Assembly: GCA_024278645.1 (NCBI GenBank) | Contig: JAJRST010000546.1 | Location: forward strand, 1-34,603 | DNA length: 34,603 nt | Direction: 5' to 3' | Source of the DNA: a bacterium | Lineage (GTDB): Bacteria > Zhuqueibacterota > Zhuqueibacteria > Residuimicrobiales > Krinioviventaceae | Shown: positions 6,696-17,982 of the stretch, piece after piece | Numbering within the stretch: position 1 is the stretch's first letter | How the letters are laid out: every line of letters begins with the position of its first letter | Position numbers and translations under genes: made by a program | Notes under the pieces: generated by a model | Databases searched by the model: none | Seen by the model: only the letters and a program-made list of their open reading frames with translations | What the model was told of the DNA's origin: nothing

Positions 6696-7361
6696 GTGAT
6701 AATGAATAAAAAAAGAAAAAAAGAAATTCTGCAATATATAGCCATCAAACTGTCGTGGCTGCTCATCCTTGCTTTTGGAAAATTGGCAAGGATAACCGTG
6801 AAAAATCAAAAGCACCATAAAACAGCGCTAAACAGTGGGCATCCCGTTTTGTACATTACCTGGCATGGTAAAATGTTGGCCCCCATTTATGTCATGCGCA
6901 ATTCCAAGATCGTCGCCATGGTCAGCGAGCACGGCGATGGAGAGATCATCGCACAAACGATTCTCAGACTCGGCTACAAGACGGTTCGTGGATCGAGCAC
7001 GCGCGGCGGTCAAAGGGCTTTTCGCGAAATGCTGAAGCTGTTAAAAAACGGGCGTCATTGCACAGTCCTGCCCGATGGTCCGAATGGGCCCCGTTTTGTT
7101 ATGAAGATGGGAGCGATACTTCTCGCTCAGAGATCCGGGGGCTATTTGTTGCCGCTCACTTTTTCCGCCGAGAAGCCAATTGAAATGAATTCCTGGGACA
7201 GGTTTACGCTATGGCGACCGTTCTCGCGAGTGTCGGTCTTGTACGGCAAGCCGATTCTTATTCCACGCAAGTTGAGTCCGGCGCAACTGGAGTACTATCG
7301 AAAGTTTGTCGAGCAGAAAATGCATGACTTGCAGCGAGAGGCGGATGAGTTTTTTGGATAA
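6696..7361 (+). CDS. DUF374 domain protein (lysophospholipid-acyltransferase-like, commonly linked to lpxB/lpxK/waaA)
   Basis: ITWHGKML...SEHGDGEIIA...GSSTRGG...VLPDGPNGPRF resembles DUF374. The track start is GTG 6696; ATG 6702 is an equally good start. The 3' end overlaps lpxK by 17 nt. Confidence 0.75.
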   Translation: MIMNKKRKKEILQYIAIKLSWLLILAFGKLARITVKNQKHHKTALNSGHPVLYITWHGKMLAPIYVMRNSKIVAMVSEHGDGEIIAQTILRLGYKTVRGSSTRGGQRAFREMLKLLKNGRHCTVLPDGPNGPRFVMKMGAILLAQRSGGYLLPLTFSAEKPIEMNSWDRFTLWRPFSRVSVLYGKPILIPRKLSPAQLEYYRKFVEQKMHDLQREADEFFG

Positions 7362-8361
7362 TAAATGGCCGGCCATTCTTTTATGGCCCCTATCCGTCTT
7401 GTACGGTTTTGCTATACGTGTACGAAATTTTTGCTATGACAAGGGTTTGTGTAAAAGCTACACTGTCGACTGCAAAGTGATAAGCGTGGGCAATGTAACC
7501 GTCGGTGGAACCGGAAAGACGCCGACAGTACAATATCTCTTTGAAAAACTGTCGTCGCTTGGCAAACGAGTCGCCATCTTAAGCCGCGGATATGGAAGGA
7601 CGACAAAGGGCGGCGTGCTTGTCTCGGACGGCGAAAAAATATGGTGCACTGCAAGAGAGGCCGGCGATGCACCCTTTCTGTTGGCTTTGTCGTGTTTCGG
7701 CGCTATTGTTGCTGTGGACGAGGATCGCATTCGAATGGCCCGCAAGATCGTCGCAAAGTATTCTCCGGATGTCATTATTCTGGACGATGCATTTCAACAT
7801 CGGAGAATACGGCGGGACCTTGATATTGTGATGATCCGCAGCGGCAAGCCGTTTGGCAACGGTTTTTTGCTGCCGGCGGGTCCGTTGCGAGAACCGTTGC
7901 AAAGTTTGCGACGATCGCATTTGATCCTTGCCAGCGGCAAAGATGATTCCGTTAAAAAGATAACGGCAAAAGAGAGGATTCCAGTCGTCAATTTTCATTA
8001 TAAAGTTCGGGATATTCGGAATAAGCACGGTTACGTTTCAGCGACCGAGTTGTCTGGAAAAGATATCATTGCCTTTTGCGGCATCGCCAATCCGACAAGT
8101 TTTTTGCAAACGCTGGCTAATTTTCATGTGAACATTTTAGACTTTGCAACGTTTCAAGACCATCATCGATACACAGAAAAAGATTTAATGCAGCTTCGTT
8201 TCCGCTCCCAACGCTTGGCATCAAACTATATCATTACAACTGAAAAAGATTGGGTAAAGCTCCCACAGGATGAGCTTGATGATGCGTGGTTGTATGTGCG
8301 CATCGGCATTATCCCGGAAGAGGAACAAGTCATAGTGTCTCGTTTTGAGATGGTTTTTTAA
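7345..8361 (+). CDS. lpxK: Tetraacyldisaccharide 4'-kinase
   Basis: P-loop VGNVTVGGTGKTP, ILSRGYG, and N-terminal WPAILLWPLSVLYG typical of LpxK. I prefer ATG 7345 (MSFLDNKW...) over the track start at 7306 because it gives the family-typical N-terminus. Confidence 0.9.
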   Translation: MSFLDNKWPAILLWPLSVLYGFAIRVRNFCYDKGLCKSYTVDCKVISVGNVTVGGTGKTPTVQYLFEKLSSLGKRVAILSRGYGRTTKGGVLVSDGEKIWCTAREAGDAPFLLALSCFGAIVAVDEDRIRMARKIVAKYSPDVIILDDAFQHRRIRRDLDIVMIRSGKPFGNGFLLPAGPLREPLQSLRRSHLILASGKDDSVKKITAKERIPVVNFHYKVRDIRNKHGYVSATELSGKDIIAFCGIANPTSFLQTLANFHVNILDFATFQDHHRYTEKDLMQLRFRSQRLASNYIITTEKDWVKLPQDELDDAWLYVRIGIIPEEEQVIVSRFEMVF

Positions 8362-8390: not shown

Positions 8391-8419
8391 TTGCGTTATA
8401 TGGTTCAATTTCTTATAAT
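8391..8419 (+). promoter_or_regulatory. Candidate sigma70-type promoter for the sigma54 activator gene
   Basis: TTGCGT (8391-8396), 17-nt spacer, TATAAT (8414-8419), about 30 nt upstream of the ORF start. Confidence 0.5.
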
Positions 8420-8445
8420 GTAGATGCTAACATACAGTTGGTTAA

Positions 8446-9846
8446 TTGGAGATGTTTATTGTGGAAGAAAAAAGAAGACCAAAAATATTGATTGTCGATG
8501 ACGACAAGAATATTTGCAAGATGATTGAGGCAAGTCTTCGAAAAGAGAGAAAGTACGATATAAATACAGCGTTGAGCGGCGAAGCGTGTTTAAAGATTAT
8601 TAAAGAAGAGTTGCCGGATCTTTGCCTGGTTGACATCCAAATGCCGGGCATCGATGGCATCGAAACCCTGAAGCGAATCAAGGAAGAAGATCCTCGCGTG
8701 CCGGTGATCATGATGACAGCGCACGGCACCATCGAGCGCGCGGTGAACTCGATGAAACTCGGCGCCTACGACTTGTTGACAAAGCCGTTCGCGCGCGACC
8801 GCTTGCTGGTTACTGTTCAAAACGCCCTGATCAACAGCTCACTGCAAAGAGAAGTAAGCGAACTGCGTTCAGAGTTGAAAAGCAAATACACTTTTTCGAA
8901 TATTGTCGGTCAAAGCGGCATCATGCAGGATGTCTTTCGGTCGGTAGAAAAAGTTATGGACAGCAATGTAACCGTTTTGATTCAGGGCGAGAGCGGCACC
9001 GGCAAAGAGCTTATTGCGCGGGCGATACACTACCATTCTAAAACGAGAGCGAACAAACCATTTGTCGCCGTCAATTGTTCCGCGTTGCCTGAATCTTTGC
9101 TCGAGAGCGAGCTCTTTGGTCACGAGAAAGGTTCTTTTACGGGCGCCGCGGGACGTCGAATCGGCAAGTTTGAACAGGCCAATGGCGGCACTATTTTTCT
9201 CGATGAGATCGGCTTGATGACGCCGGCAACGCAATCCAAAATTCTGCGCATTCTGCAGGAGCGCGAATTTGAACGAGTCGGCGGCAATGAATTAATAAAG
9301 GTCAATGTTCGCGTCATTTCCGCCACCAATAAAGATCTGGAAGAAGAAATGAAAAACGGAACTTTTCGCGAAGACTTGTTTTATCGCATTTCTGTTTTTC
9401 CGATTAAATTACCGGCCCTTCGTGAGCGCAAGGAAGACATTCCTCTCCTCGCAGCTCATTTCCTGAAAAAATATAATGAACAAGAAGGAAAAGAGGTTGA
9501 CGGCATCTCTTCGGATGCACTGGACCTTTTAATGGCTTATAATTGGCCCGGCAATGTCCGCGAACTTGAGAATGCCATGGAACGCGCCGTTGTGCTTGCC
9601 AACAGCTACGAAATCACAGCCAAAGAGCTGCCGCCTGCTGTCCGCTCACTGGGTGAAAAACGAATATACGAATCCGACAACACGCTGGCTAGTTGGATTG
9701 AAAAGTTAGAAGAGCAGGCGCTGCGTCAAGCATTGCTCGAATGCGAAGGAAATATCTCCAAAACCGCAAAACAGTTAGGCATCGGCAGGGCGACCATCTA
9801 TCGCAAGGCAAAAAAATACGGGCTTCCGATGGTCAAGACGAGTTGA
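8446..9846 (+). CDS. Sigma54-dependent Fis-family response regulator (NtrC class: REC + AAA+ + HTH_8)
   Basis: Canonical receiver (ILIVDDD, LVDIQMPGIDG, MMTAHG, TKPF). Walker A GESGTGKE. Sigma54-contact loop ESELFGHEKGSFTGA. Walker B IFLDEIG. C-terminal ISKTAKQLGIGRATIYRKAKKYG. The start is uncertain (TTG 8446, ATG 8452 or GTG 8461). Confidence 0.93.
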   Translation: MEMFIVEEKRRPKILIVDDDKNICKMIEASLRKERKYDINTALSGEACLKIIKEELPDLCLVDIQMPGIDGIETLKRIKEEDPRVPVIMMTAHGTIERAVNSMKLGAYDLLTKPFARDRLLVTVQNALINSSLQREVSELRSELKSKYTFSNIVGQSGIMQDVFRSVEKVMDSNVTVLIQGESGTGKELIARAIHYHSKTRANKPFVAVNCSALPESLLESELFGHEKGSFTGAAGRRIGKFEQANGGTIFLDEIGLMTPATQSKILRILQEREFERVGGNELIKVNVRVISATNKDLEEEMKNGTFREDLFYRISVFPIKLPALRERKEDIPLLAAHFLKKYNEQEGKEVDGISSDALDLLMAYNWPGNVRELENAMERAVVLANSYEITAKELPPAVRSLGEKRIYESDNTLASWIEKLEEQALRQALLECEGNISKTAKQLGIGRATIYRKAKKYGLPMVKTS

Positions 9847-9872
9847 TTTTCACTTCACGTTTTGTGGTTTAT

Positions 9873-9911
9873 GGGCGAATCCCTTCTTAAGGGTTCGCCC
9901 ATTTTTGTTTT
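9873..9911 (+). terminator. Rho-independent terminator after the activator gene
   Basis: Stem gggcgaa(t)ccc / gggttcgccc with one bulged base, 7-nt loop, followed by atttttgtttt. Confidence 0.6.
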
Positions 9912-9954
9912 AGTGTGATACACTGTTTCGCTTGTACACAGCCCTTGTGTTACA
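9912..9954. promoter_or_regulatory. Candidate upstream activator sites (inverted repeats)
   Basis: AGTGT-gat-ACACT (9912-9924) and the imperfect inverted repeat TGTACACA-gccct-TGTGTTACA (9933-9954). Their centres lie about 105 and 80 nt upstream of the -24 GG, the usual distance for enhancer-binding-protein sites. Confidence 0.25.
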
Positions 9955-10021
9955 ATCCTCCGAATGAGCTTCATTTACCCCCTGTTTTTAAAGATTTACA
10001 GCGTAACAACATGCTAAAAAG

Positions 10022-10036
10022 TGGTATGTAATTTGC
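10022..10036 (+). promoter_or_regulatory. Candidate sigma54 (-24/-12) promoter
   Basis: TGGTATGTAATTTGC versus consensus TGGCACG-N4-TTGC. GG and GC are separated by exactly 10 nt, and only two defined positions differ. It lies directly downstream of a sigma54 activator gene and about 135 nt upstream of the next long ORF. Confidence 0.55.
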
Positions 10037-10105
10037 TTAAAACAGTTCATCAGAAATGCATCGTTTTCTGCCAAGTGTGTGGGCGCCATTTCTGAGAACC
10101 CGCAG

Positions 10106-10168
10106 ATGGATGCTATCTGTAACGAGTGTGGCAGAGTTTCTAATGTGAAGTGCGGGGAATGCGGATAG
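10106..10168 (+). CDS. Possible 20-aa zinc-ribbon-like leader peptide (MDAICNECGRVSNVKCGECG)
   Basis: ATG..TAG mini-ORF with a CxxCG-x6-CxxCG pattern. It is in the same frame as the downstream 369-aa ORF and separated from it by only TAG plus one codon. No clear RBS. Confidence 0.2.
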   Translation: MDAICNECGRVSNVKCGECG

Positions 10169-10171
10169 CAA

Positions 10172-11281
10172 GTGACTCAAATGAAGTTGGGAACAATGGA
10201 GAAAACAAGTTTAGCTCAGTTGGTACGCGATATTTGTGCAGGCGATTATTCCCAGGCACAATTGGTTGAATTCATTAATTTGACTCAGAAAATCTCTCTC
10301 GGATATCTCAAATACCAGGAAATTATTGGTAAGCGAATATCCGGCGAGCGGGTTGATACAACACTAGAGTTGCAAGACCTTGCGGTTGATTGTATTGCAG
10401 AGCTGTTCAGCGGCGATGGAAATGGCAACTTCCCGCAGCTTAAAAAGTATTATGAACCCAAATATGAAGAAACTCAAAATATTGACGACGCCGAGGTTCT
10501 TATTTTAACTCGCCGGTTGGTGGTGCGCAAGACAAAGCAGGAGCTGTCACGAATTTTCCGGGAACGCGATCCGGAGGGCGCCAAAATTGTTCGCAACATA
10601 AAGGTCGCTATTCGGACATCCGAAAAGCTTGCCATGTTCGCTGACTTGGGTAAAGAATATGTTTTTTATAAAAATGGCCTCGAATTAAATCCGAATGAAC
10701 CTGTCGACGTCGATTTGATCGCCGGCTATTTGCGCAGAAAGAACCCCCCCATTCCTGAAGACCTGCTGCACACACGTTTTATTGACATTTATAATCCTTC
10801 CGATTCTGTTTCGAGTTCCATCCGAAAATTGCTGAGGACCGTTCACGATTTTAACGACTATCAGAACTTTCTGCCGATAGAAGTGATCGTAAAATTAATA
10901 CGACGAGTGAAATTCAATGCCGTTAAAGAAAAACTTGCCGCCGATGATTCCGTTCCCACTCCTCTTGATGTGCTGGAAGTCAAAGAGATCGAGAGCTATA
11001 TAGATGTGGTGATGGAAAAAGTCGAAAGAAAAATAAACACACAGTACCTTCGTTCCAATAAACTGGATTATCAACGCGCAGAGATTTATGCCAAAGCTCT
11101 GAGAGATGTTTTAAACGACCTCATCCAAAAAAAGGACAATTCATCGTACTTTAGGAATCTTCGATTCTACTTGCCTGAACTTACGCAGAGAGAATACCGA
11201 CAGAATGAAAGATCGGTGTTCGAATATCTTGCCAAAGTTGCCAAAAGAGAGTTTCGGAAACATTTAAAAGAATTGCTTTAA
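10172..11281 (+). CDS. Hypothetical protein; divergent sigma70/ECF-like factor with a long insertion between region-2-like and region-4-like segments (tentative)
   Basis: The N-terminus LAQLVRDICAGDYSQAQLVEFINLTQKISLGYLKY...LQDLAVDCIAELF...LILTRRLVVRKTKQELSRIF follows the ECF region 2 pattern (L..LV...GD..A...L......Y......D.AQD...E.F......IARN...D..R). The C-terminus LPELTQREYR...YLAKVAKREFRKHLKELL resembles region 4. Start is GTG 10172, or ATG 10181/10196. Coding status is solid; the function is inferred. Confidence 0.55.
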   Translation: MTQMKLGTMEKTSLAQLVRDICAGDYSQAQLVEFINLTQKISLGYLKYQEIIGKRISGERVDTTLELQDLAVDCIAELFSGDGNGNFPQLKKYYEPKYEETQNIDDAEVLILTRRLVVRKTKQELSRIFRERDPEGAKIVRNIKVAIRTSEKLAMFADLGKEYVFYKNGLELNPNEPVDVDLIAGYLRRKNPPIPEDLLHTRFIDIYNPSDSVSSSIRKLLRTVHDFNDYQNFLPIEVIVKLIRRVKFNAVKEKLAADDSVPTPLDVLEVKEIESYIDVVMEKVERKINTQYLRSNKLDYQRAEIYAKALRDVLNDLIQKKDNSSYFRNLRFYLPELTQREYRQNERSVFEYLAKVAKREFRKHLKELL

Positions 11282-11384
11282 ATTTTTCCGTAAAATCTGT
11301 TTCTTGTCTGTACTCTTTAATAGTTTTTCACCAAAAAGGTGATGGACAATTAAACGGTCACTTTGGCAAAAAGATCTGTGTATT

Positions 11385-12056
11385 ATGAAAAAACAAGAAA
11401 CGACCTTCAAAGGTAGTTGTGAGCACAGCAACCTAACGGAATTGCTGTATCTGGGCCAACTTGAAAATGAAGAGGAAAAAAAGCTCGCCCAACTTCATTT
11501 ACAACAGTGCCCTGTTTGCAAGAGGACATTTTCAGAACTTGAGCAACAATATCGATTTATAGAAAAAGAGATTCAAAAACCGGTCACAAATAAAACATTG
11601 GATCTGGCGAAGGAGGTAGGCTCAAAGGATACAAAGTATGGGCTTTTGATTTGTGAACCGGTCGAATCGGCAAAGACGAACAAAAAGGCGGCGCCTTACA
11701 AAGCCAAAGTCCTTTTTACCGCCAATGGCGCCGGAAATACAAAGAATAAAAAACTGGCCGATTTTAATCTAAAGTCTCTACCTGAAGACAGCATTGCTAT
11801 TCGGGCTATGACCGACAAAAAGTGTAATAAACTGTTGTTGTATCTTTGGAGTCCTCAAAATGAAGACTTTGACGGTTGGGAGCTTAAAATTTCGGGAGAG
11901 GCAAAGGCAGTTTTTAATCTGTCAGGCATGTCTCAGATTCCCCTGATGGAAATTGAAGATCTGAATGGAAAAGTGATCTATTTCAAAGAAAGGCAAACGG
12001 CATTCGCATCCGGAAATAGATTTACAAATATAAAGAGTTCAATCACGACTCTGTAA
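11385..12056 (+). CDS. Anti-sigma-factor-like protein with zf-HC2 motif, apparently soluble
   Basis: CEHSNLTELLYLGQLENEEEKKLAQLHLQQCPVCKRTF carries H-x3-C-x2-C (HLQQCPVC) plus an upstream Cys/His pair, as in ZAS-type anti-sigma N-terminal domains. No hydrophobic transmembrane segment is visible in the 223 aa. Confidence 0.6.
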   Translation: MKKQETTFKGSCEHSNLTELLYLGQLENEEEKKLAQLHLQQCPVCKRTFSELEQQYRFIEKEIQKPVTNKTLDLAKEVGSKDTKYGLLICEPVESAKTNKKAAPYKAKVLFTANGAGNTKNKKLADFNLKSLPEDSIAIRAMTDKKCNKLLLYLWSPQNEDFDGWELKISGEAKAVFNLSGMSQIPLMEIEDLNGKVIYFKERQTAFASGNRFTNIKSSITTL

Positions 12057-12072
12057 AAATTAAAGTTCTTTT

Positions 12073-12103
12073 AAAAGCCGGATGCATATCCGGCTTTTTT
12101 TTT
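12073..12103 (+). terminator. Strong rho-independent terminator
   Basis: aaaa-gccgga-tgcata-tccggc followed by T9 (12095-12103). The A-tract/T-tract extends the stem. Confidence 0.85.
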
Positions 12104-12181
12104 GATAAATAGCTTGCTTTGGTTTCCAATTTTAGATACATTTTTTCATAAGATATTGGAAAAATATATACTTGGCCATCT

Positions 12182-13954
12182 ATGAACGAGCGCAGCATAC
12201 TTATCGTCGACAGCGACCAAAAGAACCTCATGGTTATGGAAGCAAATTTCCGGGAGGCCTCATTCGTTACGGCAACTGCAAAAAGTGACAATGAAGCTTT
12301 GAGGATCCTTAAAGACGATTCGTTCAACATAGTGCTGTGCGCCCTAAGCGCCCCTAATATTGATGGTTACCAGGTGCTCAAGGAAATTCAGCGAAATCCG
12401 GCAAAAGAGGGGCCGCATGTTATTTTTCTCTCAATTAAAAGCGATATTTGGAATCGAGTCAAAAGCCTGAAGCTAGGGGCGAAGGACTATATTGTCAAGC
12501 CGGTCCACGCAAGCGAAGTTTTGGCCAGGGTCAATATGGTTATCAGGCGGTTGCAGCGAGAGGGGGAAAGGCAAACGTCCGTGAACAACCAAATCAGTGG
12601 ACGTCTGGAAGACCTTGCCGTGATCGACTTGATTGAAATTTTTGGAGCAGAGAAAAAAACGGGTATTTTAACCATTAATAATGAAAACGGTCATAGTGGG
12701 CAAATCGTATTCAACCGGGGGCAGGTTATTAGCACCAACACACAAGCACTGCGATCTGAAGAAGCTGTATATAAAATGATGCATTGGAATCGCGGACGGT
12801 TTTCCATGCTGTTCACGGATGTGCATGTGGAAGATGAATTTACAATAAGCAATATGGGGCTTTTATTGCAAGGAGCCAAAAGGATGGACCTTAGAAATGA
12901 ACTATTGAAACAACTTCCTTCGCTCGAGGCTGTAGTCATCACTACTTCAAATTTTAAAAAAATAACATCTCAGAAAGAGATGAACAGCGAACTCAAGGAG
13001 TTTTTGACTCTCTTTGATGGCGAGAGAACGCTAGGTCGAATTCTTGACGATAGTCATGAAAATGAGATTGTGACATTGAAGAGAATGGTAAAATTATATA
13101 AATTGGGCTTCCTGCATGTCCTTCGAAATTTTTCCAAAGAACGCCCCTTGCAATTCCGATCCGAGCAAGAGGAAGAACATCCGCAATATGTTCCTTTTGA
13201 CGTCTCCGGGGATTTCGAAGATGAGCTAGAGGAAGACGAATCCGCCTCGGAGAGCGATGAACTTCAATCTCGACCGCTTTCGGACTCCGGGGCCGGCGAT
13301 TTCGATTTAAACGACGAGGAAACCTTTCTTGCATCCGACGAGCAAGATGCTTTTAAAAAGAGTCCCCAACCCCGGGAGGATGCTGACGCGGCCGGCCATC
13401 GAGAGGAGCAAAGCGTTACAGACCGATCCGGCGCCGGCAAGAATCTCATTGTGATAAGCACAAAGCCAAAACATCTCAAGCTTTTTATTGAAAACCTGGC
13501 TTCTGATGTTGAAAAAACCGACGTCAAACCGAATGCGGCAAACATATACTTGGGGGCCGTAAAGTTGCGAGGCGGCGCCAGCGTTAATGTACTCGGTATG
13601 ACCCCGGATGAGGCGGTGACGGATATGATGCTCCATTTTTCCAAACTTACCCTTGGTTGTATGTTGCTCATCGACAGCGCCTCGGCGAATTGGAACTATC
13701 ACAGGTATCTCTACAAAACATTGCGCAAGAAACTGAATGTGCCTATTCTCATTGTTTGCATCGATGGCGAGCATGAGATAGATTTGCAATCCAAAAAAAT
13801 ACGCGACCAGATGGAAATTGATAAAGATACGCCCGTGCGCTTTATTTCCGCAATTGATCCCAACAGCGTACGTCGCGTGCTTTTCACTTTGCTGAATGCT
13901 TCTGCAAATGAAAAGATGCCTGAACCCCAAAGAGAAAGCTTTGCGACAAAGTGA
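12182..13954 (+). CDS. Pseudo-receiver (REC) - DUF4388/PATAN - acidic linker - degenerate Ras/MglA-like GTPase-fold fusion protein
   Basis: REC is aa 5-125, with Ala54 (GCC 12341-12343) where CheY has Asp57 (IVLCALSAPNIDG vs FVISDWNMPNMDG); the conserved Lys (IVKPV) is present. The DUF4388 signature is LEDLAVIDLIEIFGAEKKTGILTINNENGHSGQIVFNRGQVI...EEAVYKMMHWNRGRFSM. An Asp/Glu-rich linker spans aa ~326-415. The C-terminal ~155 aa have GTPase-like strand/loop order but no GxxxxGK[ST] (LIVISTKPKHLKLF). Confidence 0.75.
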   Translation: MNERSILIVDSDQKNLMVMEANFREASFVTATAKSDNEALRILKDDSFNIVLCALSAPNIDGYQVLKEIQRNPAKEGPHVIFLSIKSDIWNRVKSLKLGAKDYIVKPVHASEVLARVNMVIRRLQREGERQTSVNNQISGRLEDLAVIDLIEIFGAEKKTGILTINNENGHSGQIVFNRGQVISTNTQALRSEEAVYKMMHWNRGRFSMLFTDVHVEDEFTISNMGLLLQGAKRMDLRNELLKQLPSLEAVVITTSNFKKITSQKEMNSELKEFLTLFDGERTLGRILDDSHENEIVTLKRMVKLYKLGFLHVLRNFSKERPLQFRSEQEEEHPQYVPFDVSGDFEDELEEDESASESDELQSRPLSDSGAGDFDLNDEETFLASDEQDAFKKSPQPREDADAAGHREEQSVTDRSGAGKNLIVISTKPKHLKLFIENLASDVEKTDVKPNAANIYLGAVKLRGGASVNVLGMTPDEAVTDMMLHFSKLTLGCMLLIDSASANWNYHRYLYKTLRKKLNVPILIVCIDGEHEIDLQSKKIRDQMEIDKDTPVRFISAIDPNSVRRVLFTLLNASANEKMPEPQRESFATK

Positions 13955-15156
13955 GCTACCAGACTTCATTTCACATATTGGTTTTGGACAAGCTTTCTGT
14001 AGAAGTTGAGCGACTGTTGCAACTCTTAAAAGACAGCGGTTACAAGGTCACCCATACTGCGGATTCCCAGGAGGCGTTGCGGCTTTGCCTGGCAAGCGCC
14101 CCGGACTTGATCATTGTCAATATTGATGAAAGAGACAGGGAAAACATTGATTTTTTTCGACAAGCCAAGAGTCATTTTTCCACGCGCTCGACGCCGATTA
14201 TCATAACAACCGAAGCTGCTGACCATCGCAAGCGGGTCGAGTACATTGAGATGGGGGCGGACGATTTGGTGTTAAAGCCTTATTATCCTGAAGAGGTTGT
14301 CGCCAGAGTGGGCAACATTTTTCAAGACTATAAAAGCCCTCTTATTTCAAAAACTGTCGAGCGCGGCTTTGTGGGCAATCTTGGTGAAATGGACCTGATC
14401 GACCTGATTCAAACGATGGAGCTTGGCGGGAAGTCGGGGGTTATTCATCTCAATCGAGGCGATAAGGAAGGCCAGGTTTATATTTATAAAGGCAAAATCG
14501 TCGACGCGGTTGTCGAAGATTATAATTCAGTCGAGCGGGCTTTTCTGCACATGCTTACGTGGATTAACGGGACTTTTTATGTGATTTTCCAAGATGTGGC
14601 GGTCAACAAGCCGTTGACGGACAATAACCAGGAATTATTCGACGAGGCGACAAAAATTATAGATCAATGGCGAAAGGTGACCGGAGATCTGCCATCGCTT
14701 CATACGCAACTTGTTGCCGTGAGCGACAAACCGGCTCATTCGTTGGACTACCAGGAAAAGCAGATGCTCGCTGCTTTTAAGGAACCGCGCACAATTTTGC
14801 AGGCGATTGATCACAGCGAATATGACGACATTGCCGGCTTGAAGATCATAAAATCCTTGTTGGAAATGGGCTTGTTGATCGAACAGGAAGTTTCATACAG
14901 CGAAGAAAAAAATAAAGCCAGTTTGTCGCATTTAAACGGGCTTGGGCCGCGCCGATTCAAAAACAAATATTCGCATATTTTTGCCATTTTTCAAAGAAAT
15001 AAAAAGGGCCGGGACGAATTGACGCCGCCTCGCACCTCTGTCGCCGGCGCTGCTGCTGAAATGCAGCAGATTGTCGCGCCGAAAAATAAAATTCATAATC
15101 GCATTCGCCTGACAAAGGCAGAACTGTTATTGATTCGTCAGAAACTTGGCGCCTGA
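13951..15156 (+). CDS. REC-like - DUF4388/PATAN domain protein (paralogue of the N-terminal two-thirds of the preceding gene)
   Basis: The GTG start overlaps the upstream stop (GTGA). The receiver-like N-terminus keeps T and K (IIITTEA, LVLKPY), but the acceptor region reads LIIVNIDERD (Asn57, with Asp two residues later). DUF4388 signature: LGEMDLIDLIQTMELGGKSGVIHLNRGDKEGQVYIYKGKIVDA...ERAFLHMLTWINGTFYV. Confidence 0.75.
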   Translation: MSYQTSFHILVLDKLSVEVERLLQLLKDSGYKVTHTADSQEALRLCLASAPDLIIVNIDERDRENIDFFRQAKSHFSTRSTPIIITTEAADHRKRVEYIEMGADDLVLKPYYPEEVVARVGNIFQDYKSPLISKTVERGFVGNLGEMDLIDLIQTMELGGKSGVIHLNRGDKEGQVYIYKGKIVDAVVEDYNSVERAFLHMLTWINGTFYVIFQDVAVNKPLTDNNQELFDEATKIIDQWRKVTGDLPSLHTQLVAVSDKPAHSLDYQEKQMLAAFKEPRTILQAIDHSEYDDIAGLKIIKSLLEMGLLIEQEVSYSEEKNKASLSHLNGLGPRRFKNKYSHIFAIFQRNKKGRDELTPPRTSVAGAAAEMQQIVAPKNKIHNRIRLTKAELLLIRQKLGA

Positions 15157-15157
15157 A

Positions 15158-15670
15158 ATGTCGTTTTTAAGCATACAAAAAGATACACATCGTATCGGCG
15201 AGTTTATCGTCGCCGGCCCCTCGTTGACATTGCAGAAGAGGTTTATTACGCATCTGTGTAATGAAGTTATCATCACCAATAACAACACGGTGTTTGGCAG
15301 AAGCAAGGTGACCGACGAATTGCAACTGTTTTTTTACGGCATTGGCGAAAAGGAGCAATATGTTGATTTTGCGTGGGACCTCCTGGCGCCGAAAATGCTC
15401 GGCTATATTCTGGTTTTCAACTGGTATGATGGCAACGAATTTTCAAGCGCTCAACAGTTGCTGGACGAGTTGTCGTCGCAAATCGATTGCCACGGCATTG
15501 TGGTCGGGGATGTCTCCGAAATGTCCCTGCCCATTGACCCGAAAATTTACGAACAGGGTTTTTCTTTCTCCCCCAAACTTTATTTTACGCTTTGGGATTC
15601 AACAATAAAATCGGATGCAAAAAATGTATTGAAAATTCTGGTGGATTCGTTAATCAACCATTTTGAGTAA
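15158..15670 (+). CDS. Small GTPase-fold-like protein with degenerate nucleotide-binding motifs (tentative)
   Basis: ATG 15158 lies 1 nt after the upstream stop. EFIVAGPSLTLQKRFI sits where MglA-type GTPases have KIVYYGPGLSGKTT. LFFYGIGEKEQ corresponds to DxxGQ, GYILVFNWYD to the G..FV.DS strand, and IVVGDVSE to NKxD. Similar in layout to the C-terminal module of the 590-aa protein. Confidence 0.5.
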   Translation: MSFLSIQKDTHRIGEFIVAGPSLTLQKRFITHLCNEVIITNNNTVFGRSKVTDELQLFFYGIGEKEQYVDFAWDLLAPKMLGYILVFNWYDGNEFSSAQQLLDELSSQIDCHGIVVGDVSEMSLPIDPKIYEQGFSFSPKLYFTLWDSTIKSDAKNVLKILVDSLINHFE

Positions 15671-15672
15671 AG

Positions 15673-16068
15673 ATGATAGAAAGCTATTCAAATACAAGCG
15701 TCGCCGTTCACCCCGGCGTCCAGTTGCAGTTTTTACGCTACCTGCTGATGGGCTTGTCTCCGAACCCGTTAATTGAAAATATGGAGGCGGTCGAGTTGGC
15801 GGCGGTTTATGATTATATCTGGGAAAAGGCGCTGGAAATAGGCATTCGCGTCAAGGGCGATCGTTTTTCGCAAACCGATATGTTGAAAAGGCTGAAATCG
15901 GTTGAACAGTATAAAATGGAAGTTGACTGCACCGAACCGGGGCAGCGATGTATATCCGAAGAGTGCCTCCTTAAAGAGGCCGCTTGCGTTAAAACAAGGT
16001 TAAAGGAACAATTTAACCGACTTTATAATATGGTTTCGGAATACTTGGGCATTGAATTTAAAGCATAA
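15673..16068 (+). CDS. Hypothetical 131-aa protein, likely helical, with a C-x6-C-x4-C-x6-C cluster
   Basis: The start is 2 nt after the upstream stop, which suggests translational coupling. Cys cluster: CTEPGQRCISEECLLKEAAC. I recognise no family. Confidence 0.5.
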   Translation: MIESYSNTSVAVHPGVQLQFLRYLLMGLSPNPLIENMEAVELAAVYDYIWEKALEIGIRVKGDRFSQTDMLKRLKSVEQYKMEVDCTEPGQRCISEECLLKEAACVKTRLKEQFNRLYNMVSEYLGIEFKA

Positions 16069-16078
16069 AATAATTTTC

Positions 16079-17026
16079 ATGCTGCAACGCCGCCCCGGCA
16101 TTGAATTGTTTGTACTGTTTCTTGTCGCTTGTAATCTTATGTTCTCTTCTTCTCTTCTTTCCCAGAAAAATGAAAACCTTACAATGGAACGGGGTTCCTT
16201 CCTTATTCATTTTGCGGCGTCGGACAGCGCTTATGCCAGACAGGCCGGCGACATTCTCGCCAAGGCCTATGAAGAAATCTCTTTCGATCTTGACATTCAA
16301 ACGGATGAAACGTTCAACGTTTATATTATGCCGACCCGCCGCAGCTTTTTGGACGCCCTGGAAGGGAAATTGCCAAAATGGACCGGCGCATTCGCCGTTC
16401 CGTCGCAGCAGCTTATGGTTATAAAATCGCCAAGATGGGACAGAAGCGAGAATTACCGACATACGCTTGTGCACGAGTTGCTGCACCTGCTTGTCCACAA
16501 TTATCTTGGCGTGCGCGATTTGCCTCGTTGGCTCGATGAAGGGATGGCGATTTTCTATTCCGGCGAGGATCGCTGGAAGACGGATGTCGCCGTATCAAAG
16601 GCGCTGGCCACCGGCTCCGTCATTCCCCTGTCCGAAGTGGATGATGTTTTAAAGTATCATAGAGCCAAAGCGGATTTGGCCTACCAACAAAGCTTCTCCG
16701 CCGTGTTTTATTTGTTGACCACTTATGACATCGAGGCCTTGCGGGAGATTATTTACAGCCTCAAAGAGGGCCTCGGCATTGATGAAGCATTTCGCCGGGC
16801 AACGGGAAGCAGTTTCAATGACTTTGAGGAAGAGTGGCGCAACTATATAAGGAGGACGCACAAATGGTTGTGGCTCTATGAAATTGATAATTATGTATGG
16901 GTTTTTATTCTGGCGCTCACTGTGTTTGCCTTTATTCTCCGTCATTTTCACAACAAACGGGTCGAACGCAACTGGCGGAATGATGATCTTTTTGAGCCGT
17001 TGCAGGACGAACCGGATGATCCGTAA
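16079..17026 (+). CDS. Membrane-anchored peptidase MA (HEXXH) family metalloprotease
   Basis: HELLH at 16472-16486, followed by PRWLDEGMAIFYSGE (Peptidase_MA_2-like third ligand region). N-terminal signal/anchor IELFVLFLVACNLMF. C-terminal TM helix YVWVFILALTVFAFIL, then an acidic tail. ATG 16079 avoids overlap; the track start at 16052 is also possible. Confidence 0.7.
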   Translation: MLQRRPGIELFVLFLVACNLMFSSSLLSQKNENLTMERGSFLIHFAASDSAYARQAGDILAKAYEEISFDLDIQTDETFNVYIMPTRRSFLDALEGKLPKWTGAFAVPSQQLMVIKSPRWDRSENYRHTLVHELLHLLVHNYLGVRDLPRWLDEGMAIFYSGEDRWKTDVAVSKALATGSVIPLSEVDDVLKYHRAKADLAYQQSFSAVFYLLTTYDIEALREIIYSLKEGLGIDEAFRRATGSSFNDFEEEWRNYIRRTHKWLWLYEIDNYVWVFILALTVFAFILRHFHNKRVERNWRNDDLFEPLQDEPDDP

Positions 17027-17067
17027 TCTTTTGTTGTGAATTACTGTGTGAATACTTAAATTCAGCA

Positions 17068-17982
17068 ATGAATACCTGGAAGGACAAATTAGAATATAAA
17101 GCGCTTCTTGCTGTTGTCAGAATCGTTCATTCCTTATCGCCCCAGGATGCCGTCAAACTCGGGCGGCGCCTCGGCGACTTTGCCCACTATTTCATTCCCA
17201 TTCGAAAATCGGTGGTTTATGAAAATCTGGCAAATGCCCTGCCTGAAAAATCGTCCAAAGAAAGAAAAAGAATAGCCCGCTTGACGTTTCAGAGTTTCGG
17301 ACAAACATTTATCGAATTTTTACGAAACCCTGTGCGTTCGAGAGAAGAGACGCTCGAACGAGTTGTTTTTCATAACAAGGCGTTGTTGCAGGAGGCGTAC
17401 AATGCCGGCAATGGCGTTTTGTTGATGAGCGGTCATTTTGGCAGTTGGGAGATGATGGCCTGCGCCGTGACCGCTTTGGGATACCCGCTTGTGGTCATTG
17501 CGCGGCCGCAGCGCAACCGGCTGGTCGATGCCCTGATCAATCAATATCGTCAGGCGGCGGGGATTGAAACCGTATCGCTCGGCATGGGCGTGCGCGCCTT
17601 TTTGCGGGCGTTGAGGCAGAATAAATTTGTCGCCATCCTCGCGGATCAGGATGCGCATCGTGAAGGCGTTTTTGTCGACTTTATTGGCTTGCCCTCGTCC
17701 ACCGCTCCCGGGCCGGCCGTATTCGCATTGAAGACCGGAGCTGATATCGTCTTTGTCACCTCCGTCCTTCGGCGTGATGGAAAATATGACGCCTATTTCG
17801 AAAAGATCGAAAGCAAGGATTTGTACGGCGTCACGGATGAAAATATTCGCATCATCACCCAAAGACATGCCAAAAAACTGGAAGAGAAAATACGTCGCTG
17901 GCCGCACCACTGGTTCTGGATGCACAGAAGGTGGAAGACGACCCAGAGAGACGGGCGACGAGTCAATAAAGAGGAAGAATAA
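17068..17982 (+). CDS. Lipid A biosynthesis late acyltransferase (LpxL/LpxM/HtrB family)
   Basis: LLMSGHFGSWEM (the H-x4-D/E catalytic motif of this family), ILADQD, and the C-terminal WPHHWFWMHRRWK typical of Lip_A_acyltrans. Confidence 0.8.
   Translation: MNTWKDKLEYKALLAVVRIVHSLSPQDAVKLGRRLGDFAHYFIPIRKSVVYENLANALPEKSSKERKRIARLTFQSFGQTFIEFLRNPVRSREETLERVVFHNKALLQEAYNAGNGVLLMSGHFGSWEMMACAVTALGYPLVVIARPQRNRLVDALINQYRQAAGIETVSLGMGVRAFLRALRQNKFVAILADQDAHREGVFVDFIGLPSSTAPGPAVFALKTGADIVFVTSVLRRDGKYDAYFEKIESKDLYGVTDENIRIITQRHAKKLEEKIRRWPHHWFWMHRRWKTTQRDGRRVNKEEE

Follow-up and report, generated by a model that had tools for sequence, protein, structure and literature searches.

Anti-sigma factors carrying a ZAS domain are typically encoded with the extracytoplasmic function (ECF) sigma factors that they hold, as in the RsrA-SigR, RslA-SigL, RsiW-SigW, and ChrR-SigE pairs, in two-gene operons with the target first and the zinc partner second. 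In Borrelia burgdorferi, Rrp2-RpoN-RpoS forms a cascade leading from an activator through sigma54 to an alternative regulator. Domains that have lost their switch chemistry are represented by eukaryotic pseudoGTPases (CENP-M and the pG domains of p190RhoGAP) and by the pseudo-receiver of FrzS, and a Glu at the acceptor site is able to mimic phosphorylation, as in NtrC D54E. PATAN, Ras-like, and receiver-like domains are found together in the MglA/MglB(/RomR) polarity module of Myxococcus and Thermus and its PATAN neighbours (Makarova et al. 2006, as cited in bioRxiv 10.1101/2021.06.11.447907), and the cyanobacterial PatA-type regulators PatA, PixG, and PixE carry PATAN and a receiver in one polypeptide, with some of these regulators being phosphorylation-independent and using PATAN as the output domain (bioRxiv 10.1101/2021.06.11.447907). 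Here we analyse a block of eight genes that shares features with each of these systems, located at positions 8391-17026 of a 34,603-nucleotide (nt) stretch of DNA (contig JAJRST010000546.1 of assembly GCA_024278645.1, hereafter the window) from a bacterium of the Zhuqueibacterota (KSB1). Unless another locus is named, all coordinates are those of the window, and all features described in it lie on the forward strand.

The block lies between lpxK and an LpxL-family acyltransferase gene, and comprises a module A (an NtrC-class activator, p369, and p223) and a module B (p590, p401, p170, p131, and a membrane peptidase). We tentatively read it as a sigma54-driven anti-sigma-type switch accompanied by a PATAN scaffold that works independently of phosphorylation and GTP, the two being linked to outer-membrane/lipopolysaccharide (LPS) biogenesis, an interpretation that we favour while holding it to be somewhat short of probable. 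All eight open reading frames (ORFs) of the preliminary description of this DNA were recovered from the ORF listing at the positions given there, and its two terminators, its -24/-12 element, and its closely spaced gene junctions were likewise reproduced. The same description regarded the block as an inserted island, which we reject because the block is ancestral and syntenic across the KSB1 and Calditrichota lineages, two lineages of phylum level; it moreover consists of two separable modules and not one unit.

Homologues of p590 were found in KSB1, Calditrichota, and unclassified metagenome-assembled genomes (MAGs), with their contigs commonly showing the order lpxB, DUF374, lpxK, activator, p369, a protein of ~220 amino acids (aa), a long receiver (REC)-PATAN protein, a second REC-PATAN protein, a ~170-aa protein, a ~125-131-aa protein, Peptidase_MA_2, LpxL, and glycosyltransferases. 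An exact look-up of the window p590 gave no entry, yet one of the homologues, P0001, is the same protein. This order is mostly the same in ~80 KSB1/Calditrichota genomes, counted at the level of species, so that the recurrence which the preliminary description proposed to test is borne out. A scan with the p369 alignment, restricted to one genome per species, yielded 80 loci (individual loci are cited below as L005 and so on); because every block locus comes from these related lineages, locus counts are not phylogenetically independent. By ORF calling and BLAST, the activator lies upstream of p369 in 54/73 loci, p590 and p401 are present in 54/64, p170 in 50/62, and the MA peptidase in 36/53. 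The lpxK gene stands upstream, as lpxB-DUF374-lpxK, in 34/67 loci, including loci without module B, and lpxL downstream in at least 23/50, a lower bound given that flanks were examined to 10 kb; adjacency to lpx genes is thus frequent and not universal. Conservation is by far the highest in the activator and p369, with orthologue identities of 75–92% and 42–86% respectively, against 22–58% for the remainder. Literature searches on PATAN/DUF4388, on KSB1/Zhuqueibacterota, and on bacterial pseudoGTPases yielded no description of the block or of p369. The parts belong to known kinds (bacterial enhancer-binding protein, ZAS domain, PATAN, Ras fold, MA peptidase). What appears to be undescribed so far is their combination, the loss of switch chemistry across whole families, the pairing of a ZAS protein with one that does not resemble a sigma factor, and the lipid A context.

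Module A opens with the activator gene (8446..9846), preceded by a sigma70-type promoter-like element read from the window sequence (TTGCGT-N17-TATAAT, 8391..8419). Its product combines a receiver, an AAA+ domain, and a Fis-type helix-turn-helix (HTH), matched in Pfam by Response_reg (1e-32), Sigma54_activat (2e-72), and HTH_8 (1e-11), plus AAA_lid_14. Orthologue N-termini and the window sequence place the likely start at ATG 8452, and by the same comparison the likely start of p369 at ATG 10196, giving 361 aa. The receiver residues D12, D13, D57, T/S87, and K109 are canonical in 56/56 orthologues, the window included, and the AAA+ motifs GESGTGKE, GSFTGA, and DEIG are present, which supports the original assignment of an NtrC-class activator with a canonical receiver. 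The activator is an orphan regulator; the earlier statement that the window lacks a histidine kinase agrees with a scan of the ten larger ORFs outside the block, smaller ORFs not all having been scanned. An intrinsic terminator follows the gene (9871..9902; a 12-bp stem with 7 GC pairs, then a T run), with a comparable hairpin visible in close orthologues.

Between this terminator and p369 lie an enhancer and a sigma54 promoter. A palindromic enhancer, or upstream activating sequence, with half-sites TGAnACA / TGTnTCA (9913..9940) is the presumed binding site of the activator. The pattern T[GC]AnACA-N1-4-TGTnTC occurs in 42 of 71 non-redundant loci, always 99-120 nt upstream of the TGG of the -24 element, and gives 47 matches in total in the 1.54 Mb of all loci; it often consists of two overlapping copies, the window copy being a weaker version. 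This position is the geometry expected for a site of the adjacent activator. The sigma54 -24/-12 promoter TGGTATGTAATTTGCT (10022..10037) is the one place in the 34.6 kb window that matches TGGYAY-N5-TTGCW, where 0.14 matches would be expected, and ~70/87 loci carry TGGTA[TC]-N5-[TA]TGC at a distance of 50-330 nt ahead of the p369 gene, with the rest of the spacer not conserved; the near-consensus element of the preliminary description is thereby sustained. As in the Rrp2-RpoN-RpoS cascade, an NtrC-class regulator is encoded beside the sigma54 promoter of a regulatory gene, with the enhancer ~100-120 bp upstream of -24, however the driven gene here is not a recognisable sigma factor and the whole is embedded in lipid A genes. 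The p369 leader also contains a 20-codon ORF (MDAICNECGRVSNVKCGECG, 10106-10168, + strand) with a CxxC-x7-CxxC pattern, which shares the reading frame of p369, a TAG standing between the two. A zinc-ribbon leader peptide was considered and rejected at this position, as the ORF is conserved in 0/66 other leaders, and its absence there leads us to treat it as a chance occurrence.

Homologue and profile searches place p369 (10172..11281) in an unnamed family of highly conserved, all-alpha proteins. All 346 close homologues are named ‘hypothetical’, and share invariant stretches such as RRLxxRKTKQELSRIFRERDPEGAKIVRNIKVA. An exhaustive profile search extends the family to 1208 representative clusters (50% identity), 845 of them at E<=1e-10, mostly in uncultured FCB-group bacteria; most of these wider members are ~335-350 aa long and without Pfam domains or informative names. 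The family is therefore far larger than the block and reaches outside KSB1/Calditrichota, an aspect that the preliminary description overlooked. Among the window proteins p369, p223, p170, and p131 have no Pfam or NCBIfam match. The AlphaFold2 (AF2) model of p369 (pLDDT 85.9, pTM 0.51) is all-alpha with one hairpin; with this whole-protein model Foldseek gave no significant match in either PDB (best E 1.2) or BFVD, and a profile search of PDB found no relative.

The second gene of the operon, p223 (11385..12056), encodes an N-terminal ZAS-type (zf-HC2) anti-sigma domain, recognised by profile and motif, and a beta-rich C-terminal part. Its motif residues are H38, C42, and C45 (H-x3-C-x2-C) plus C12, with C, E, H, C, and C invariant in 42 aligned ZAS partners and a C-x24-26-H-x3-C-x2-C spacing in 76/77 distinct partner sequences. 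Against PDB, the family profile matches RslA (3hug_B, 6e-4) and RsiW (5wuq_C, 4e-3), and more weakly DdvA (0.14) and ChrR (0.84), and Pfam zf-HC2 matches 18/42 partner members (best 7.7e-7); the anti-sigma zinc motif previously proposed is therefore well founded. p223 has no transmembrane segment and is predicted to be cytoplasmic. The partners occur in two forms, of ~200-230 aa or, in Calditrichota-type loci, of 76-98 aa consisting of the ZAS domain alone. A partner with the ZAS motif accompanies p369 in 86/89 loci carrying p369 (window counted; L090-L092 excluded), and the pairing is kept in 3/4 distant relatives outside the block phyla, where the neighbours are quite different and the activator, PATAN, and lpx genes are lacking. 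On gene order, p369 would be the sole candidate target of the ZAS protein. An intrinsic terminator closes the operon (12073..12098), its 11-bp stem followed by T9 bearing out the strong terminator originally reported, and the hairpin AAAGCCGGAT..ATCCGGCTTT is also found in orthologous loci.

The operon thus resembles the ECF sigma/ZAS pairs in having the target first and the zinc partner second, and in the C-x24-26-H-x3-C-x2-C spacing of the p223 family, which is that of ZAS domains. In contrast to those pairs, p369 is ~360 aa long, about twice the size of an ECF sigma factor, and has no region 2 or region 4 signal, the partner is cytoplasmic by prediction with a beta-rich C-terminal domain or comprises just 76-98 aa, and the operon appears sigma54-driven rather than autoregulated. 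A serious, if unlikely, alternative is that p369 is nevertheless a genuine and extremely divergent sigma70/ECF sigma factor with p223 as its ZAS anti-sigma factor, completing a cascade from activator through sigma54 to an alternative sigma factor. The order of the two genes, standard for sigma/anti-sigma pairs and present in 86/89 p369 loci and in distant relatives, speaks for this, as do the matches of the ZAS profile to RslA and RsiW, both true anti-sigma factors, and the basic, helical, and very conserved character of p369. By eye, the p369 N-terminus moreover resembles ECF regions 2.1-2.4 (LV..IC.GDY..A.L..F..L, ..DLA.DCIAELF, and L.RRLV.RK.K.EL), and hhalign pairs the same stretches with the ECF regions; read from sequence in this way, the resemblance is a lead and not evidence.

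Every attempt to substantiate that lead has come back negative or no better than its control. None of 38 p369 members at E<=10, nor any of 10 distant members, has a Sigma70_r2, Sigma70_r4, or ECF match in Pfam. The p369 family profile (Neff 6.9) aligns to an ECF sigma alignment with an hhalign probability of 0.5%, and the N-terminus scores 12.2 against sigma2, below the reversed-template control of 16.9, with whole-protein and domain-wise comparisons alike scoring at or below reversed controls; the sensitivity of hhalign was limited here because the ECF template held 5 sequences. In the Foldseek PDB list sigma70 appears at E 3 with a TM-score of 0.09, and the modelled C-terminus is a single 30-residue helix, not a region-4 HTH. 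We therefore reject p369 as a recognisable sigma factor, on Pfam (48 members), PDB profile, hhalign, and Foldseek results together. The region-2-like and region-4-like ends described previously find no support, and of the searches suggested for the ORF at 10172-11281, those with profiles gave no characterised family and that with the whole-protein model no significant structural match.

Several further arrangements of the p369/ZAS pair were encountered. A second p369 copy with a short (86-91 aa) ZAS partner is present away from lpx and activator genes in L005 and L048 (10001-11448 in both), L051, L053, and L067, with no sigma54 element detected in L005, L048, and L067 and one ~91-100 nt upstream in L051 and L053; the p369 genes of L048 and L072, the latter a full block, are a paralogous pair, as both come from one MAG. 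In L031, a p369/ZAS pair without module B is followed after a few kb by bacillithiol biosynthesis genes (15057-17490; those for BshC and for a PIG-L/BshB-like deacetylase), a proximity that could point to a thiol-redox connection of the ZAS protein or be coincidental. L091 (3151-5704) carries a p369-family protein, P0283, on a phage-like contig of many small ORFs, where the next gene encodes a cyclic nucleotide-binding / 4Fe-4S protein and not a ZAS partner. In L088 (11996-20523), L089 (5912-9654), and L090 (10246-12402), distant pairs are followed by a protein of ~720-775 aa without clear domains, with large Fib_succ_major / Por_Secre_tail secreted proteins additionally downstream in L088 and L089, an arrangement suggesting that the two-gene switch has another output elsewhere in the FCB group.

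Module B starts after the second terminator with a sigma70-type promoter (TTGCTT-N17-TACATT, 12114..12142) identified by orthologue comparison, cTTGACA-N17-TAnAnT being present at the same place in most orthologous loci. A p369-specific promoter was sought here and rejected; because the element looks like an ordinary TTGACA-N17-TAnAnT promoter, there is no evidence for p369 driving module B. The first two genes encode p590 (12182..13954), with REC (6e-21) and DUF4388 (PatA_N, 2e-15) matches in Pfam followed by an acidic disordered linker and a C-terminal domain at aa ~420-580, and p401 (13951..15156), with DUF4388 (PatA_N, PF14332, 5e-16) and REC (5e-14) matches. The five genes of the module run on with a GTGA overlap between p590 and p401 and then gaps of 1, 2, and 10 nt, as expected of the translationally coupled run first described.

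The REC-DUF4388 architecture assigned to both proteins in the preliminary description is confirmed by Pfam, however that description missed the absence of the acceptor Asp in both. By mapping to CheY, the D57 position of p590 is Glu in 56/57 orthologues and D13 is lost, while the equivalent position of p401 (residue ~57) is Asn in the window and, among orthologues, Glu in 45 and Asp in 9. From these residues, both domains are best described as pseudo-receivers, at best phosphomimetic. The window proteins are more degenerate than the family norm, with window p590 carrying the sole Ala at the acceptor position (residue ~53) among the 57 orthologues. Like the PatA-type regulators, p590 and p401 join PATAN and a receiver in one polypeptide; unlike them, the order is reversed (REC then PATAN, as opposed to PATAN-REC), the acceptor Asp is systematically Glu, and an extra winged-helix-like region, an acidic linker, and a pseudoGTPase domain are present.

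The third gene, p170 (15158..15670), encodes a stand-alone protein homologous to the p590 C-terminal domain (hhalign probability 99%, E 5e-18, 149 columns), and hence the same architecture is encoded twice, once fused (p590) and once split (p401 and p170). As a homologue search with p170 returned close relatives alone, structure prediction was directed at the p590 domain instead. The AF2 model of p590 aa 410-590 (pTM 0.77) has the element order b1-a1-b2-b3-a2-b4-a3-b5-a4-b6-a5 and gives 730 Foldseek PDB chain matches at E<=1e-3, with all of the top 50 listed being Rab/Arf/Ras/Rho-type small GTPases, including MglA; these Rab/Arf/Ras/Rho/MglA matches lie at E 1e-7 to 1e-5, that of MglA (6izw_A) at 4.5e-6. 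The structure search proposed for p590 aa 419-590 therefore has a clear outcome, with p170 and p590 aa 420-580 both predicted to adopt a Ras-superfamily fold. The motifs of a working GTPase are missing from it. The GxxxxGK[ST] P-loop (G1) is found in 0/54 p170 and 0/58 p590 sequences (0/112), with GxxxxGK lacking the Ser/Thr retained in just 3 and 2 sequences respectively; the G3 Asp is gone in p170, with His, Phe, or Tyr instead and the Gly alone kept; and a G4 [NT]KxD occurs in 1 sequence per family, which is chance level. The impression that both modules are catalytically dead is in this way extended to the whole family. As in known pseudoGTPases and pseudo-receivers, the fold is kept and catalytic or acceptor residues are lost, however the loss here is family-wide (0/112) and brings pseudoGTPases and pseudo-receivers together in one operon. 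A literature search on bacterial pseudoGTPases found no described bacterial Ras-fold pseudoGTPase family.

The fourth gene, p131 (15673..16068), by homologue comparison a mainly helical orphan with an optional 4-Cys cluster, is confined to KSB1-type loci (20/61); as the cluster is absent from several members, the label of Cys-cluster protein is withdrawn, and a Roadblock or other known family was rejected for p131 given that it has no PDB or Pfam relative. The final gene (16052..17026, start likely ATG 16079) encodes a membrane-anchored MA-clan metallopeptidase, with Pfam Peptidase_MA_2 (PF13485) matched at 2e-22 over 187 residues, HELLH at residue 132, and hydrophobic segments at ~6-26 and ~271-291, the only hydrophobic/transmembrane segments in the block; this agrees fully with the membrane HEXXH peptidase reported originally, and the Glu in the downstream WLDEGMAIFY could be the third zinc ligand. 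In Calditrichota-type loci an insertion separates p170 from the peptidase gene, with gaps of ~3 kb in L046, L047, L054, L058-L065, and others, and with the insertion of L006 (16449-19012) encoding a PALP-CBS protein and a Cys/Met-metabolism PLP enzyme. Loci with this insertion do not carry p131.

The presence of PATAN, Ras-like, and receiver-like domains together raises the alternative of an MglA/MglB-type module for polarity or motility (type IV pili or gliding), in which case module B would simply neighbour the LPS genes and be unrelated to the envelope and to module A. Genes for MglA/MglB homologues often adjoin PATAN genes (bioRxiv 10.1101/2021.06.11.447907), which keeps this explanation alive, and the same study shows PATAN of cyanobacterial PatA-type regulators binding the pilus motor protein PilB1 and PilC; the match of the Ras-fold domain to MglA, among other small GTPases, and the separability of the two modules are also in keeping with it. 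We nonetheless regard it as rather doubtful. No Robl_LC7/Roadblock domain was detected by Pfam in the eight block proteins, in line with the preliminary description, and none was called in orthologous loci; no pilus or gliding gene is present in the block or its flanks, and with none of the G motifs retained, a GTP cycle like that of MglA is unlikely. In contrast to the MglA/MglB(/RomR) module, the Ras-like domains lack G1, G3, and G4, one of them is fused to a PATAN protein, and the module comprises two paralogous copies linked to a membrane peptidase and lpxL, not to pili. Where module A and lpxK are absent, module B moreover still comes with the MA peptidase, lpxL, and an MsbA-like gene, and in the window no predicted terminator separates the peptidase gene from lpxL.

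The link to lipid A is best judged where the modules have come apart. L031 and L087 contain lpxB-DUF374-lpxK-activator-p369-ZAS followed by unrelated genes, without module B, and in L092, which has neither module A nor lpxK at the locus, lpxL and an MsbA-like ABC gene come after module B; modules A and B are hence separable. The flank that stays with module A is lpxK (7306..8361; Pfam LpxK 5e-95), and that staying with module B is the LpxL-family lipid A acyltransferase gene (17068..17982; Pfam Lip_A_acyltrans 8e-56), which in the window follows the peptidase gene by 42 nt with no predicted terminator between. As each module alone keeps a lipid A neighbour, the envelope/LPS link suggested previously gains modest, independent support. 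It may still be argued that the adjacency is meaningless, with three independent units (the activator, p369 with its ZAS partner, and the PATAN operon) whose ancestral order has merely remained unbroken. The units do own separate promoters and terminators, each module occurs alone in some genomes, the p369/ZAS pair is found in wholly different contexts in other lineages, and the loci come from two related lineages, so that their counts are not independent. We find this improbable, since the order has been kept though protein identity drops to 22–45% for most members, p369 is tied directly to the activator gene through an enhancer and a sigma54 promoter in a constant arrangement, and both modules retain a lipid A neighbour when apart. 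Horizontal acquisition of the block as a mobile or defence island is hardly credible and has been rejected: its G+C content is slightly lower than that of the flanks (0.39-0.47 vs 0.48-0.54), but synteny effectively refutes the idea, with the same chromosomal position in ~80 genomes, no integrase, transposase, or repeat boundaries, no meaningful PADLOC matches, and identities of 75–92% for the activator and 42–86% for p369 across lineages that fit vertical descent.

A few features of the surrounding DNA deserve mention. Within the block, G+C dips to 0.39-0.42 at 11001-13000, spanning p223 and the beginning of p590; because synteny is conserved, the dip more likely marks weakly constrained sequence than foreign origin. 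A DUF374 gene (6696-7361), which in the window overlaps the lpxK ORF, lies invariably between lpxB and lpxK in these lineages and, though uncharacterised, belongs stably to the lipid A operon. The ten larger window ORFs outside the block include those for a UDP-GlcNAc 2-epimerase, a Wza-like exporter, an M24 peptidase, a GFO oxidoreductase, a GT9 heptosyltransferase, and an MsbA-like ABC protein. In L033 (598-11700) the block is present twice, as a perfect inverted repeat, with p369..p170 on the + strand and then p170..p369 on the - strand, probably an assembly artefact of that MAG.

Under the reading that we favour, the activator would be transcribed from its own sigma70-type promoter and, once phosphorylated by an unlinked kinase, would bind the palindromic enhancer ~115 bp upstream of the sigma54 promoter and switch on the two-gene p369 and ZAS operon. 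By analogy with sigma/ZAS pairs, the ZAS protein may keep p369 inactive until a signal frees it, with thiol oxidation, zinc loss, or something sensed by the ZAS C-terminal domain as candidate release signals. The freed p369 would act as an effector, most likely a transcription-associated factor that is not recognisably of the sigma70 family. Module B would be transcribed from its housekeeping-type promoter, apparently together with lpxL and core glycosyltransferases, to give one fused and one split copy of pseudo-receiver, PATAN, and pseudoGTPase, together with the small orphan p131 and a peptidase whose catalytic domain is predicted to face the periplasm. As the receivers carry Glu, Ala, or Asn at the acceptor position and the Ras-like domains lack nucleotide motifs, module B is probably a constitutive protein-protein scaffold, in which the two pseudoGTPase domains could plausibly form a hetero-pair, and which may position or gate an envelope process rather than serve as a phosphorylation or GTP switch. 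Such a role fits the published view of PATAN as a protein-interaction output domain able to act without phosphorylation (bioRxiv 10.1101/2021.06.11.447907).

A number of points weigh against this mechanism. No HisKA or HATPase_c domain was found in the block, in the ten larger window ORFs, or in the called genes of orthologous loci. Taken alone, the window p223 falls below the Pfam zf-HC2 threshold, which the family profile and 18/42 members reach. The role of p369 as a transcription effector is a guess from gene order, since p369 has no detectable relative of known function. In module B, Glu at the acceptor site could mimic phosphorylation and not inactivate the domain, and loss of the G motifs is no proof of lost nucleotide binding. 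Finally, the LPS link, frequent and not universal (lpxK 34/67; lpxL at least 23/50), could reflect a frozen ancestral gene order. A bolder proposal, to which we give little credence at present, is that p369 founds a new and widespread class of factor held by a ZAS domain, either a sigma-like RNA polymerase subunit divergent beyond the reach of present models or the first non-sigma ZAS target, which in KSB1/Calditrichota has been wired through an orphan NtrC-type regulator and sigma54 and which, with the PATAN/pseudoGTPase scaffold, controls lipid A/outer-membrane biogenesis.

Conserved to an unusual degree, the block provides a tangible entry point into gene regulation in two lineages of phylum rank with hardly any cultured members. 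p369 represents a large family for which the invariant anti-sigma-type partner is the sole functional clue, and knowledge of ZAS domains would be broadened whether p369 proved to be a hidden class of sigma factor or a non-sigma target. The apparent bacterial family of Ras-fold pseudoGTPases, paired with pseudo-receivers, would be a prokaryotic counterpart of the eukaryotic “dead enzyme as scaffold”. Because both modules independently stay beside lipid A genes, their adjacency yields a testable hypothesis, namely that late lipid A steps or LPS export may be under dedicated regulation or spatial control in FCB-group bacteria.

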